The notes beneath the pieces were generated by a model. That model was not told the origin of the DNA. It saw nothing but the letters and a program-made list of their open reading frames with translations, and did no database searches. From a candidate division WOR-3 bacterium (GTDB taxonomy: Bacteria > Hydrothermota > 32-111): a DNA stretch of 64,000 bases. Positions 18,274-63,131 of the stretch are shown one piece after another. The stretch covers positions 1,218,602 through 1,282,601 of the forward strand of contig JBDRZU010000001.1 of the NCBI GenBank assembly GCA_039804105.1. Direction: 5' to 3'. A program made the position numbers and the translations under genes. Each line of letters opens with the position of its first letter. Position 1 is the stretch's first letter.

Positions 18274-18297
18274 GGGGACGGTGCTTGACTTTTTGAC
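18274..18297 (-). repeat. Conserved intergenic motif, copy a (reverse orientation)
   Basis: Plus strand reads GGGGACGGTGCTTGACTTTTTGAC, 5 nt after the stop of the 16280-18268 gene and upstream of the rRNA promoters. Confidence 0.95.
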
Positions 18298-18328
18298 ATT
18301 TTAAGAATAAAAAAAATTTTATTTGCTC

Positions 18329-18356
18329 TTGACAGAAAAAATTTTTTGATTATAAT
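18329..18356 (+). promoter_or_regulatory. rRNA promoter P1 (consensus sigma70)
   Basis: TTGACA (18329-18334), 16-nt spacer, TATAAT (18351-18356), preceded by an A/T-rich UP-like tract. Confidence 0.7.
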
Positions 18357-18413
18357 GAAAAACACTGAAGGAACAACGCCCTTCAGGAAATTTCAAAAAA
18401 ATAAAAATTGCTC

Positions 18414-18441
18414 TTGACAAATTTAAAAAGTTTGATATAAT
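18414..18441 (+). promoter_or_regulatory. rRNA promoter P2 (consensus sigma70, extended -10)
   Basis: TTGACA (18414-18419), 16-nt spacer ending TGA, TATAAT (18436-18441). Shares the GCTCTTGACA context with P1. Confidence 0.7.
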
Positions 18442-20528
18442 TTTTATCCTTTTAAAATTTGATTGATCTTTGACATTTTGAATTTTGTGGAAAGGCATCT
18501 TATGGATTAAGATACTAAGAGTATGTGGGGAATGCCTTGGCACAGATAGGCGATGAAGGACGTAGCAGGCTGCGATAAGCCTCGGGGAGCCGCCAAGCGG
18601 GCTTAGATCCGAGGATCTCCGAATGGGGAAACCTTATACGGTAAACCCGTATAGTCCATGAATGAATACATAGTTCATGGTCGCCAACTCAGGGAAGTGA
18701 AACATCTCAGTACCTGAAGGAAAAGAAAACAAAAGTGATTCCCTAAGTAGTGGTGAGCGAAAGGGGAAGAGCCCAAACCGAGATGTATGTAAGGCTGCAA
18801 CCGTTGTACATCCGGTGTTGTGGGACCTGATAGACCGAGTGCAGTGAGGTCAAAAGGTTACAAATTGTTTGATTAGCAGAACTTGTCTGGAATGGCAGGC
18901 CATAGAAGGTGAAAGCCCGGTATGCAAAAATCAAACAACCTTTTTCAGGTATCCCAAGTACCACGGGACACGTGAAATCTTGTGGGAATCTGGGAGGACC
19001 ACCTCCTAAGGCTAAATACTCATCTGTGACCGATAGTGAACTAGTACCGTGAGGGAAAGGTGAAAAGAACCCCTGGCGGGGAGTGAAATAGAATCTGAAA
19101 CCACATACTTACAATCAGTTGGAGGGCTACATTTCGGGCAACCGAAATATGCCTGACAGCGTACCTTTTGCATAATGGACCGGCGAGTTACTCTATGTTG
19201 CGAGGTTAAGTGAAAGTAATCACGGAACCGTAGCGAAAGCGAGTCCGAATAGGGCGTTTAGTAGCATGGAGTAGACCCGAAGCTGAACGAGCTATCCATG
19301 GCCAGAGTGAAGTCGGGGTAACACCCGATGGAGGCTCGAACTAGTAACCCTTTAAAAGGTTTTGGATGAGCTGTGGATGGGAGTGAAAGGCTTAACAAGT
19401 TCAGTGATAGCTGGTTCTCCCCGAAATAGCTTTAGGGCTAGCCTCGGATGGTCAGTATTGGGGGTAGAGCTCTGAAAAGGTTAGGGTGTCACAAGCATAC
19501 CGACCCTTATCAAACTACGAATCCTAATACTCAAAATCCGGGAGTCAGGCAGTGGGGGCTAAGCTTCATTGCCGAGAGGGAAACAACCCAGACCGTCAGT
19601 TAAGGTCCCAAAATATAGGCTAAGTGGTAAAGGATGTGAAATTACCCAGACAGCCAGGATGTTGGCTTAGAAGCAGCCATACATTTAAAGAGTGCGTAAT
19701 AGCTCACTGGTCGAGTGGTTTTGCGCCTAAAATTTAACGGGGCTTAAGCCTATTACCGAAACTGCGGAACAAGTTTTACTTGTTTGTAGGGGAGCGTTCT
19801 GTTGACGTTGAAGCGGTATCGCAAGGGGCCGTGGAGTTAACAGAAGTGAAAATGCCGGTATGAGTAGTGATAAAGCGGGCGAGAAACCCGCTCACCGAAA
19901 ATCCAAGGTTTCCTGGGGAAGGTTAATCCTCCCAGGGTTAGTCGGTGCCTAAGGTGAGGCCGAAAGGCGTAATCGATGGACAACAGGTTAATATTCCTGT
20001 ACCACCATTGTTTCGTTTGACTGAAGTGGGGGTGCAGAAGGGTAGACCTACCAGTTAGTGGATATACTGGGCCAAGCAGGTAGGAGGAAAGAGCAGGCAA
20101 ATCCACTCTTTCGTTAACTCCGAGATGTGATGGCGAGCTCATTAGAGCGAAGTGGTTAATCCCATGCTGACAAGAAAAGCCACGTAGGGAGAAACGATGG
20201 TGACCGTACCGTAAACCGACACAGGTGGATGAGGAGAGAATCCTAAGGTGCTCGAGTTATCTCTCGTCAAGGAACTCGGCAATTTACCCCCGTAACTTCG
20301 GGAAATGGGGGACCTGACTTGGTGAAGGATTTACTCCGTAAGCTAAGTTGGGTCGCAGAGAAATGGCTCATGCGACTGTTTATCAAAAACACAGGACTCT
20401 GCAAAGTCGTGAAGACGACGTATAGGGTCTGACACCTGCCCGGTGCCGGAAGGTTAAGGGAAGAGGTCAGGTCAAGCAATTGGCCAAAGCTTTGAACCGA
20501 AGCCCCGGTAAACGGCGGCCGTAACTAT

Positions 20529-61069: not shown

Positions 61070-61917
61070 ATGTTTATGCAGTTTTAAGAGACTCTGATTC
61101 AAATGGTAGCTGCATTATTAAAAGTATTAGTTTAACCCAAAAGTTACAAAAAGAACTGACGGGTTACATTCCTTTTAAAAGTTATGAAGATGAAAACATA
61201 AAGCAAATTAGATTTTCAGGAGAGTATAAACCAGATGAACAAGAAGTACTTTATATTAACAAATTTTACAATCCTTTTAAAGAGTTTGACTCAATTACTG
61301 ATACATTAAATAAAAGTGATATTGATAATATTAAATTTTTAGCTTTTGTAGATAGTCAAAAAATTGCATATCAATCTTTTGACAGTAGAAAAATAATAAC
61401 ACCTGAAAAGTGGTTTTTAATATATTCCGATAATACCTATTCTAAAATAGATAAGAAAGGGTTAATAATAGATTCCAGAATCGATGCATTATATTTGAAA
61501 AAGGAAGAGAAATTATTATTTTTTTCTTATCGCAATGCAATAAAAATATTTGATTTAGGAAAATATTATCGAGAAGCAACCGAAGACGAGTTAAATTTGT
61601 TTACAAAAGAAGAAATTTTTATATTTAATGAAGGTTTTGATAAAAATCTATTAAGCTCAAAAATGCGAAAAAAAATTTTTATGATACAAAAAAATGAGAT
61701 CTTAACAAAAATTAAAAATAATTTTAACCAAGTAGTAAATTATGCTAAAAAATTAAACGTTGATGAAATGTTTGACAAAAACAATAAAAAAATCATTTTT
61801 CCAAAAGAAAAGAAAAATATAGAAAAATTATTAAATTTTTTGAATGAGGATTTATACGAATCTCCTATTAGTGGTTTAATATACGAGACAAATTCAAAAA
61901 AATTGGTAACTGAATAG
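61066..61917 (+). CDS. DUF4868-like protein, KwaB-like candidate
   Basis: 283 aa. Size, position after a 4-TM protein, and sequence features (FSGEYKPDEQEVLYI, KIFDLGKYYREATEDELNLF) fit my recollection of the DUF4868/KwaB family. Not verified by any search. Confidence 0.4.
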   Translation: MNVYAVLRDSDSNGSCIIKSISLTQKLQKELTGYIPFKSYEDENIKQIRFSGEYKPDEQEVLYINKFYNPFKEFDSITDTLNKSDIDNIKFLAFVDSQKIAYQSFDSRKIITPEKWFLIYSDNTYSKIDKKGLIIDSRIDALYLKKEEKLLFFSYRNAIKIFDLGKYYREATEDELNLFTKEEIFIFNEGFDKNLLSSKMRKKIFMIQKNEILTKIKNNFNQVVNYAKKLNVDEMFDKNNKKIIFPKEKKNIEKLLNFLNEDLYESPISGLIYETNSKKLVTE

Positions 61918-62094
61918 ATTTATTAATTGAACTTTTTTTAACTAAGAAACAACTTTTAACTTTACGATCTATACTTGATTTTATTGAAGTGATATTTTTA
62001 ATTAAAGTTGGCTTATGTTGTTAAAAATTGCTTTGTTGGTTTAGAAAAAAGGATAAAGTTGTTTAAAAGTATAAAGATAAAAAGTAAACTATTA

Positions 62095-62994
62095 TTAATT
62101 TTTAGTACTTGACAAAATATAGTAGATTGAACTTACTTGATTCACGTATGATTCATCTGGATTATATCCATAAAAAATTAATTCAATGTTGTTAAGATCG
62201 ATTTTTTTATATAGATCAATTAAAATTTTTAATCCTTCTTTTAAACTTTCTTCATCACTTAAAGGTTTAATCGATTTTACTTGCATAATACCAGTAGTTC
62301 TTGATTTTTTGCTAAAAAAGAAAAACTTATTTTCTAAAATTCTTATAAATTTTGGCCTATTAAAATTTTCATATATCATAATTGAGAGAATAATGTTTTT
62401 TAAGTTAGGATCTTCAATTTCATTTAAAATTTTAGAAAAATTTTTCTTTAATTTTTGTGCCATTTTGATGATGTAATTTTTTTTTACGTAATCATCCCTT
62501 TGGGAAGTAGAATAATTTTTGTAATTAAAAATACTATAAATATATAAAATTATCAATAACCATAATTCATTTGAAAGTGATTTAATATCAGGAATAATTA
62601 GGTTTTTATTTTTCAGAAGTTTAAAATATGTTATTAAAGAAAATAAAATTATTAAAATGTCGTTTAGTATTTCTTTTTTCCAATTCGTTAAGTAAACTCT
62701 ATCGAAAAAAAATTTATAAAAAATTCTTAATAGTATATAAAAAACAGAGACAAAATAAATGTTTTCTATTAAAAAATTAAAATTTAATACATAAAAAAAA
62801 GCAGATATTATAAACAAAAAAATTGAAGGACCTAAAATTTTATAGACAAAATTAAAAGCAGGAGAGTAAAATTGATCATTTTCAAAATTTAAAGGTTCAT
62901 AACCATAAAAAGAGGATTTTTTTCCAAAAAAATTTATAAAAAAGAACAATATAAAAGAAAAAATTAAATGAAAAACAATTTTAATAATTACCAT
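62095..62994 (-). CDS. Membrane protein of unknown function (N-terminal TM bundle, soluble C-terminal domain)
   Basis: 299 aa with 4-5 TM helices. The C-terminal IYENFNRP...TTGIMQV faintly resembles lytic-transglycosylase motifs, with low certainty. Confidence 0.4.
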   Translation of the reverse strand: MVIIKIVFHLIFSFILFFFINFFGKKSSFYGYEPLNFENDQFYSPAFNFVYKILGPSIFLFIISAFFYVLNFNFLIENIYFVSVFYILLRIFYKFFFDRVYLTNWKKEILNDILIILFSLITYFKLLKNKNLIIPDIKSLSNELWLLIILYIYSIFNYKNYSTSQRDDYVKKNYIIKMAQKLKKNFSKILNEIEDPNLKNIILSIMIYENFNRPKFIRILENKFFFFSKKSRTTGIMQVKSIKPLSDEESLKEGLKILIDLYKKIDLNNIELIFYGYNPDESYVNQVSSIYYILSSTKN

Positions 62995-63108
62995 ATTAAA
63001 AATTTTAATAGATTTTTTTTAAAGTTCAAGATACTGATTAAAAATATTATTATAAGGAAGGTTTTTGAAAAAATATGTGATATCTTTCATTTTAGTTGTT
63101 AACTTTCA

Positions 63109-63131
63109 GGGACGGTGCTTGACTTTTTGAC
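63109..63131 (-). repeat. Conserved intergenic motif, copy g (reverse orientation)
   Basis: Plus strand reads GGGACGGTGCTTGACTTTTTGAC, 114 nt upstream of the 62095-62994 minus-strand gene start. Confidence 0.95.

Follow-up and report, generated by a model that had tools for sequence, protein, structure and literature searches.

We analysed a stretch of 64,000 nucleotides (the window) from a candidate division WOR-3 bacterium (GenBank assembly GCA_039804105.1, contig JBDRZU010000001.1, positions 1,218,602 to 1,282,601 of the forward strand), in which a motif of 23–24 nt recurs seven times. The motif forms the terminal repeats of tyrosine-transposase elements of a class that is known but has hardly been studied. 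These are the TIRtrons, in which RAYT-like genes called TIRYTs are flanked by long inverted repeats that form no hairpin (Di Nocera et al. 2013, PMC3733652). In other contigs the same motif is the cognate terminal inverted repeat (TIR) of a Y1/HUH enzyme whose catalytic motif is intact, its outer end is an active boundary, and its copies are conserved in place. Thus, the 24-mer of the window is in all probability the TIR of a TIRtron family that is represented here by solo copies only, with no transposase gene beside them.

The repeat in the 64-kb window

The 23-mer GTCAAAAAGTCAAGCACCGTCCC has seven exact copies in the window (Table 1) and did not occur in any of 100 dinucleotide-preserving shuffles. 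A mismatch search of the 64 kb revealed no extra copy at one to three mismatches. An earlier note, made from the letters of this DNA, had reported seven copies without substitution, and this is confirmed. Five copies have C as the 24th base, and the other two (48968 and 63109) have T. The note began the first copy at 18274. A copy does lie there; its core 23-mer starts at 18275, and position 18274 is the optional 24th base. The other descriptive points of the note agree with our data. A run of four to eight A residues directly precedes every copy, two GTCAA units lie 8 nt apart within the motif, and the motif is not palindromic. Folding of the 24-mer as single-stranded DNA gives 0 kcal/mol on both strands (z about 0.3), with no dyad symmetry, self-complementarity or hairpin, and it contains no GTAG tag. 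All copies are intergenic except the one at 24176, which overlaps the stop codon of the open reading frame (ORF) 24185–24769 on the minus strand; the C-terminus GDGA of this ORF is encoded by the reverse-complemented motif.

Transposase elements that carry the repeat

In the metagenome contig L044, the reverse-complemented motif (436–458) is followed after 22 nt by an ORF of 310 amino acids (481–1413) with the Pfam domain Y1_Tnp (IS200-like). The forward motif (1421–1443) stands 7 nt past the stop codon of this ORF, with a tandem second copy at 1457. The arrangement recurs at locus L056, where the exact motif flanks the gene for protein P0008 on either side; P0008 and the L044 protein share 75% identity. 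The WOR-3 relative Uz-U4-10 also has a cognate TIRYT gene. There (L004) the reverse-complemented motif lies 49 nt upstream of an ORF that begins MRRARVKYEGSYHHVMNRG and is 57–59% identical to the L044 protein and P0008.

Nine further homologues have related repeats, located on both sides of the gene in eight cases and only on the right side in L057. These repeats differ from the motif at 1–7 positions and vary with the protein. The variant TIRs are GTCAAAATGTCAAGCACCGTCC, GTCATAAAGTCATGCACCGTCCC, GTCAAAAGTCAAGCTCCGGGCAT, GTCAAGATGACAAGCACCGTCCCC, GCCAAAATGTCAACCCCCGTCCC, GTCACAAAGTCAACCCCCGACCCC, GGGGTCGGTGCTTGACTTTTGACA and AATCTCGGTGCTTGACAGTrTGAC, and the forms of the outer end among them include GGGGTCGG, AGGGACGG and AATCTCGG. 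In GTCATAAAGTCATGCACCGTCCC both GTCAA units are changed to GTCAT. The elements have a common layout: about 1 kb in length, one gene of about 300 amino acids, and two inverted TIRs with GGGGACGG outermost and the GC-rich ends directed outward. The left TIR lies 20–50 nt before the ATG, and the right TIR lies 3–10 nt after the stop codon.

No direct target-site duplications flank the 13 inverted pairs and TIRtrons. The earlier note had allowed that the motif might prove to be the terminus of an ordinary insertion sequence (IS) or miniature inverted-repeat transposable element (MITE). It turned out that the motif does form the inverted repeats of a transposase element. The element is not an ordinary IS or MITE, because target-site duplications are absent and the copies are conserved in place like repetitive extragenic palindromes (REPs). 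A DDE-type IS or MITE was rejected for the first of these reasons, and also since the associated enzyme is a Y1 HUH transposase. The complete TIRtrons L059, L063 and L069 have similar outer flanks, with CTAT(A) before GGGG on the left and ACAG after CCCC, or CACAG after CCC, on the right. This suggests an additional imperfect inverted repeat of 4–5 nt or a preferred target. Flanks of this type are absent from the solo copies in the window.

The TIRYT protein family

A homologue search returned at least 909 proteins at E ≤ 1e-10, many of them from WOR-3, TA06 and Stahlbacteria and many annotated only as "RayT". A search with a 108-amino-acid fragment of a WOR-3 TIRYT returned only six proteins with 51–64% identity and did not recover the full-length WOR-3 protein. 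The HUH histidines H59 and H61 and the tyrosine Tyr118 are invariant in the TIRYT alignment. By sequence profile, the best PDB match is TnpA_REP of E. coli, a REP-associated transposase (4ER8). The AlphaFold model (predicted local distance difference test, pLDDT, 86) also has 4ER8 as its best fold match, followed by the TnpA proteins of IS608 and ISDra2. According to the model, the N-terminal domain folds like IS200/RAYT proteins, and its HUH motif and catalytic tyrosine are intact; the helical C-terminal domain is also predicted with high confidence. In the member encoded at L052, the C-terminal half has a Pfam match to Bac_DnaA_C (E = 2.6e-8). The scores for the RAYT equivalog NF047646 of NCBIfam (64–66 bits) are under its 80-bit cut-off.

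Distribution and conservation of the repeat

The exact 23-mer was found in 40 stretches of a collection of species-representative genomes, most of them in metagenome-assembled genomes (MAGs) of several WOR-3 species. The repeat is dispersed and moderately abundant: Uz-U4-10 (JBBFKX01), the relative that was sampled most closely, has 32 copies, DPZ-2 bin 157 (JBDRZY01) has 10, UBA6260 has four and "TA06 32_111" has one. Further exact matches are in GC-rich contigs from other organisms ("Wallbacteria" STB_16 and STE_119) and in 13 metagenome contigs with a GC content of 0.32–0.51. There were no exact matches in viral contigs, and neither the motif nor its reverse complement was found in print in the literature searched.

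In the window and the other loci, 282 kb in total, 62 copies are exact; besides these there is a single copy with three mismatches and a partial duplicate, and so the motif family is all-or-none. In the alignment of all copies, conservation falls to the background level immediately past GTCCC(C). On the A-rich side, WOR-3 copies show weak conservation for about 12 nt more (ttaCAnAAAAAT), and this extension is missing in other phyla. Thus, the unit is the 24-mer itself.

The copies are also conserved in place. In 12 orthologous pairs the motif is 100% identical, and the 80-nt flanks are 48–91% identical. The probability that about 276 sites remain unchanged by chance is below 1e-12 even at a neutral identity of 90%. 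The ortholog of copy 1 is kept in L006, with 91.8% identity across the site, and copy 2 is syntenic in L040 (87.4% over 8 kb) and in L007. Copies 1 and 2 form an inverted pair 5,924 bp apart, with outer ends directed outward, around the 23S-5S rRNA genes, an ORF of 157 amino acids and a DUF2334 gene. This pair (18275/24176) has the geometry of a TIRtron with the rRNA operon as cargo. However, both ends are syntenic in two other species, so there is no sign that the rRNA unit moves.

Apart from such pairs, copies occur as singles, as inverted dimers (L001, L009, L026) and as clusters of the same orientation (nine copies in L015). The array at the right end of the window continues in a near-identical strain (L066, from GCA_039804145.1; 99.65% identity), where five further reverse copies follow copy 7, which is thus the first of at least six copies of the same orientation. 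The right-hand copies of L066 separate an AbiJ-like gene and a dGTPase gene, three unknown genes, a DUF2130 gene, a REP, and another LVIVD gene. The AbiJ-like gene (PDC-S32) and the dGTPase gene are located at 8415–10785 of L066, just to the right of the window. At least 10 TIRs therefore lie within about 26 kb at this hot spot, and in both groups the outer ends point toward the defence island at its centre.

One alternative is that the solo copies are inert relics of former TIRtron activity, and that gene blocks between them are gained and lost by RecA-dependent or slippage recombination with no present-day enzyme. No transposase was found among the scanned ORFs of the window, the TIRYT genes are single-copy and fixed, direct repeats of 23–37 bp are sufficient for deletion, and each of the three polymorphisms described below is compatible with a simple deletion or replacement. 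Relics should decay, yet the 282 kb hold a single near-copy beside 62 exact ones, and the motif is unchanged at orthologous sites despite the divergence of the flanks. The identical 23-mer in unrelated GC-rich organisms likewise argues for function, and the asymmetric duplications and the fusions at the outer end (L015 at 2687, L020), presented in the next section, are not products of recombination between repeats. We therefore consider that the copies are unlikely to be mere relics.

The outer end of the repeat

Several observations indicate that the GC-rich outer end behaves as a sharp, active boundary of the element. First, homology between the window and other genomes ends 0–4 nt from the outer end at the copies 53380 and 63109. 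At copy 5 (53380), the homology with L010, from another species, ends 4 nt past the outer end, and at copy 7 (63109) the homology with L015 ends exactly at it. Second, 11 of 77 unique copies have junction-spanning tandem duplications ("stutters") at the outer end, and only one has them at the inner end. The stutter unit comprises the last 5–13 nt of the TIR plus 5–12 nt of the flank and is repeated two to five times. A stutter at the right end of one TIRtron is polymorphic between samples. Third, the outer end is fused to genes. In L015 (position 2687), it is joined directly to the last ~35 codons of a truncated sorting domain of the type IX secretion system (T9SS). In L020 (4297–7641, from the unrelated MAG STE_119), the motif and the preceding AT supply the ATG and the first nine codons (MSKSQAPSP) of a gene for a UvrD/AddA-like helicase-nuclease of 1114 amino acids, which has its own ribosome-binding site and the promoter TTGACA-17-TAAAAT. 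A coding leader as the general function of the motif was rejected, since four of the seven window copies have no ATG and other copies have no downstream ORF. ORFs that converge on the outer end stop at a TGA within the TIR, and their C-termini are GDGA or GRCLTF. These ORFs, all on the minus strand, are 24185–24769 of the window, 3186–3752 and 6773–7060 of L015, and 616–3459 of L026. Apparently, the insertion replaced their native 3' ends.

The earlier note had suggested that the copies border variable gene content. Three independent genome comparisons, each with a breakpoint exactly at a copy, bear this out. At the first site (L027 compared with L032), Uz-U4-10 has a PEMT gene, a TIR and a gene for a 225-amino-acid protein where UBA6260 has a 5.5-kb LVIVD cassette and a second TIR; the flanks are 96.6–99.6% identical. 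At the second site (L018 compared with L019/L010), a gene for a 277-amino-acid protein, a TIR and a methyltransferase gene in Uz-U4-10 correspond to an LVIVD cassette between two TIRs in DPZ-2. At the third, L036 and L015 are 99.2% identical up to the TIR and unrelated past it. The LVIVD cassette of DPZ-2 bin 157 (L019/L010) is 74–78% identical to window positions 48968–53402 and has two TIRs in a different context. In short, low-coverage contigs of Uz-U4-10 we found no recombinant junctions: no flank matched the flanks of other copies. On the whole, the comparative data support the copies as delimiters of accessory modules.

The note had proposed an integron-like or attachment-site mechanism. 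In such a model, a tyrosine or serine recombinase would insert and excise circular double-stranded cassettes at the motif. Arrays of the same orientation do separate cassettes of one to three genes (nine copies within 8 kb in L015, at least 10 copies in about 26 kb around the right end of the window), cassettes are present or absent exactly at copies, and toxin–antitoxin-like nucleotidyltransferase (NTase) and defence genes are typical integron cargo. However, the motif has neither dyad symmetry nor a hairpin, and the imperfect inverted repeat R''-L''/L'-R' of attC sites was not found. IntI was absent from the ORFs scanned in the window and at other loci. The note had seen no integrase or transposase in the window, and our Pfam scan agrees for the window ORFs adjoining copies, which are not all the ORFs of the window. 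No integrase was found in about 28 neighbouring ORFs of other loci either, and Pfam scans of about 50 neighbouring ORFs in all contained no recombinase. Instead, Y1 transposase genes have the motif as their TIR, and its sequence differs along with theirs; its copies occur in both orientations, inside the ends of ORFs and as inverted dimers without cargo. An integron-like recombination site is therefore highly improbable.

Promoter-like features of the repeat

In every examined TIRtron that has a left TIR, this TIR carries a -35 box TTGACW (TTGTCA in L059). A -10-like hexamer follows this box 16–19 nt further inward, and the ATG comes 6–35 nt later. Many solo copies of WOR-3 keep the inner extension ATTTTTyTGTAAsTT, which gives TTGACT-N16-TAAGTT. 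Some copies may therefore act as portable promoters, and the function of an operator or promoter, which the earlier note had named as an alternative, is possible as a secondary role of the motif. The protein family also has a helix-turn-helix domain.

A stronger form of this idea is that the solo copies are exapted portable promoters or operators, bound by a domesticated TIRYT through its helix-turn-helix (HTH) or by RNA polymerase, and that their position at cassette borders is incidental. Besides the promoter elements, it would fit that many copies have a gene start 41–91 nt from the inner end and that three of the six reverse copies on the right of the window precede plus-strand genes. Perfect conservation at orthologous sites implies selection, and single-copy, fixed TIRYT genes are expected of a domesticated protein. 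On the other hand, the orientation of the copies relative to genes is mixed: 30 gene starts and 19 gene ends adjoin the inner side, and 29 starts and 23 ends adjoin the outer side. At four of the seven window copies the -35 box is aimed into the 3' end of the upstream gene. Promoter-like sites are not enriched in the region 47.5–64 kb (105 compared with 96 ± 9 in shuffles). All 23 positions are invariant, which a protein operator rarely needs, and the stutters and the truncated-gene fusions are left unexplained. We consider this explanation possible but rather unlikely.

A number of other signals were compared with the motif and rejected. There is no GG-N10-GC spacing of a sigma-54 promoter. 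CGTC of an extracytoplasmic function (ECF)-type promoter is present, with no -35 at the proper distance. The GTCAA spacing is 8 nt and not the 10 nt of a CtsR-like operator. The resemblance to the rRNA boxA antiterminator is loose, and the orientation is wrong at most copies. A terminator does not fit a motif that has no hairpin and is not always 3' of a gene. The DNA uptake sequence, Ter, parS and the CRISPR repeat differ in copy number, spacing or symmetry, and a promoter of phage-type RNA polymerase was also considered and dropped. The extended WOR-3 form (GGGG...TAAG over 37 nt) resembles the inverted repeat of the Tn3 family, but there is no 5-bp duplication, the enzyme is Y1, and the inner part is not conserved outside WOR-3.

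Comparison with known systems

The family shares with TIRtrons a Y1/HUH gene between inverted, non-hairpin repeats at short fixed distances, a GGGG outer end, a DnaA_C-like HTH in family members, and dispersed singles, dimers and clusters. Among the published TIRs, too, some are dispersed in moderate abundance, as single copies, dimers or groups (PMC3733652). The class belongs to subclass 2.1 of Quentin et al. 2018 (PMC6006769), whose members have DnaA_C-like or HTH C-termini (Bac_DnaA_C/HTH_23/HTH_28) and no REPs. Compared with the published TIRtrons, the lineage (WOR-3 and unrelated metagenomic organisms) and the TIR sequence are new. As far as the consulted parts of these accounts go, they do not report for the TIRtron class an all-or-none perfect conservation across species and phyla, stutters at the outer end, copies that bound the presence or absence of defence genes and T9SS cargo, or a TIR that supplies the -35 box of its gene.

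Like REP/REPIN-RAYT systems (PMC3116915, PMC3333891, PMC3479197; Nunvar 2010), the family has a single-copy, vertically kept Y1 gene between inverted short repeats, and copies of the repeat are scattered through extragenic DNA and retained at orthologous positions; 4ER8 is the closest structure. However, REPs are GTAG-tagged palindromes recognised as single-stranded hairpins, whereas the 24-mer has no self-complementarity. REP populations hold many mutant copies, and this family has essentially none. The TIRYT protein is about twice as long as a RAYT, has an additional HTH region and scores below the NCBIfam cut-off for RAYTs. A second repeat family present at these loci is a classical REP, in which GTAG is followed by the palindrome CCGCAMCCTTYAGGKTGCG (-9.8 kcal/mol), often in inverted, REPIN-like doublets. 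Such sites were seen at 49033–49056 of the window, as a hairpin after copy 4; at 1490–1575 of L015; and at about 10850–10900, 13100–13160 and 14510–14630 of L066. Of the 77 TIR copies, 12 have a REP within 90 nt, and its orientation with respect to the TIR never varies.

With the IS200/IS605 elements IS608 and ISDra2, the family shares the catalytic fold, the HUH and tyrosine chemistry and the lack of target-site duplication. The ends of IS200/IS605 elements are unlike each other, have subterminal hairpins and are processed on one strand, in contrast to the identical inverted ends of TIRtrons, which have no hairpins. IS200/IS605 elements are multi-copy, and the TIRYT gene is single-copy and fixed.

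In integron attC arrays, Xer-dependent pdif modules and relaxase oriT-oriT systems, too, a short conserved site is repeated between accessory modules that are present or absent at these sites, and HUH relaxases can recombine two directly repeated nick sites. The window family differs from them, as no attC-like fold, Xer-type dyad, or association with an integrase, Xer or relaxase was found; recombination at its copies would be a deduction from the genome comparisons.

Assignment and possible mechanism

Some points weigh against the assignment of the window repeat to an active TIRtron family. No TIRYT gene was found among the scanned ORFs of the window or in 9.8 kb beyond it. The action of a TIRYT on solo copies in trans is an assumption. 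The outer end GGGGWSAS is common to the majority of TIRs, not to all (PMC3733652), and the octamer GGGGACGG agrees with it at seven of eight positions, with G in place of A at position 7. The exact-motif cognates (the L044 protein and P0008) have no Pfam match to DnaA_C or HTH domains. The TIRYT genes that were checked in more than 20 samples are single-copy and in one fixed context, so that the system may for the most part be domesticated and not in active transposition. To our knowledge, no TIRYT has been biochemically characterised, and the cleavage site, the strand and the single- or double-stranded nature of the substrate are therefore deduced. Finally, insertions and deletions of cassettes between direct repeats of 23–37 bp can come from ordinary recombination or slippage without any transposase. 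Such recombination could give these events alone; it cannot explain the absence of decayed copies, the asymmetry of the ends or the fusions.

A mechanism can be proposed in which a TIRYT encoded elsewhere in the genome recognises the solo copies in trans, as assumed from the relatives. As candidate contacts, the two GTCAA units may be bound by its HTH; one natural variant has both units altered. The GC-rich end would be the target of the HUH domain, possibly at the conserved CGG.G core close to the outer end, with a putative nick at or beside the outer end (...GTCCC/C). Repeated nicking and rejoining, or priming at the outer end, could yield the stutter duplications, and joining of the outer end to other DNA could yield fusions and adjacent deletions. 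Recombination between copies of the same orientation might lead to the gain, loss or replacement of the gene blocks between them. Single-strand excision by IS608 and recombination by HUH relaxases between two nick sites are analogies for such a cassette exchange. Since the copies are kept perfect in place over long divergence, selection or continual enzyme-driven homogenisation is likely, as in REP/RAYT systems.

It is also conceivable, although doubtful, that the solo TIRs are docking sites of a gene-cassette system driven by the HUH transposase, which would be integron-like in function and chemically unrelated to integrons. A domesticated single-copy TIRYT would then nick the outer ends of copies of the same orientation and excise a block together with one TIR, probably as a single-stranded circle (the "peel and paste" of IS608), for re-insertion at another copy. 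Defence systems and T9SS surface proteins would in this way be shuffled within and between genomes, and the TIR would donate a -35 box. If this were true, the identical 24-mer across phyla would make cassettes exchangeable between them.

Gene content of the window

The coordinates of the copies and of the modules between them are given in Table 1. The gene content agrees with the partition of the window in the earlier note, i.e., the 23S-5S unit with two genes, the NTase module, the LVIVD module, a 174-bp spacer and the defence island.

Table 1. Solo TIR copies and the gene modules that they delimit in the 64-kb window
Feature	Coordinates	Strand	Exact 23-mer	Remarks
Solo TIR copy 1	18274..18297	-	18275-18297	Plus strand reads GGGGACGGTGCTTGACTTTTTGAC
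Solo TIR copy 2	24176..24199	+	24176-24198	Outer end over the stop codon of ORF 24185-24769(-)
Solo TIR copy 3	47971..47994	+	47971-47993	Left border of the two-gene NTase (DUF6036/AbiEii-like) cassette
NTase cassette	47995..48967	+		ORF of 65 amino acids and nucleotidyltransferase of 185 amino acids (DUF6036/DUF2204/AbiEii)
Solo TIR copy 4	48968..48990	+	48968-48990	24th base T; between NTase cassette and LVIVD/T9SS-cargo cassette
LVIVD cassette	48991..53379	+		LVIVD-repeat protein of 1258 amino acids with T9SS C-terminal sorting domain
Solo TIR copy 5	53380..53403	+	53380-53402	108 nt past the stop of the LVIVD gene
Solo TIR copy 6	53578..53601	+	53578-53600	44 nt upstream of the first defence-island gene
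Defence island	53602..63108			Between outer ends of copies 6 and 7 (inverted pair)
Solo TIR copy 7	63109..63131	-	63109-63131	24th base T; outer end toward defence island

The outer end of copy 1 faces left, 6 nt past the stop codon of the ORF 16280–18268, and its inner end faces the 23S promoter. The inner end of copy 7 faces the gene 63371–63793, which encodes 140 amino acids. The spacer 53404–53577 between copies 5 and 6 has a promoter-like site TTGAAA-17-TAAAAT, and a stem-loop just 3' of the LVIVD gene is read as the terminator of this gene. At 53645–61917, the defence island encodes a PLD(HKD) and SNF2 helicase protein, which is DrmD/BrxH-like, a type IIG restriction-modification enzyme, and KwaA and KwaB of Kiwa. 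The island also has, on the minus strand, an ORF for a protein of 299 amino acids of unknown function.

Large paralogous genes for T9SS cargo, with LVIVD or FG-GAP repeats and Por_Secre_tail, are located at 10707–13964, 13992–16250 and 49495–53271 of the window and at many other loci. No other family adjoins TIR copies as often (22 ORFs at 15 loci). Offset self-matches show that the LVIVD repeats within 49.8–51.4 kb recur in tandem about every 126 nt.

The 23S rRNA gene (18505–22194) is 3,690 nt long, compared with a model of 2,925 nt, and the ORF 20613–21185 inside it encodes 190 amino acids with a LAGLIDADG homing-endonuclease domain (E = 4e-20). The gene therefore probably contains an intron or intervening sequence; the group I intron families of Rfam all stayed below their gathering scores. 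The 23S-5S pair (18505–22360) stands alone, with no 16S rRNA or tRNA gene in the 64 kb, and so the rRNA operon looks unlinked.

Significance

TIRYTs are a large family of experimentally untouched relatives of the RAYT and IS200 transposases. The loci described here offer clean material for their study, with a predicted exact substrate of 24 nt and an active end that is marked by homology breaks, stutters and fusions. They also hold natural polymorphisms, in which blocks of defence and surface-protein genes come and go at the repeats, while single copies persist unchanged over long divergence. Should the enzyme prove to move cassettes between copies, it would open a new path for the flow of accessory genes in phyla about which little is known. 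Otherwise, the repeats still mark the variable regions of WOR-3 genomes and cause breaks in their assemblies.

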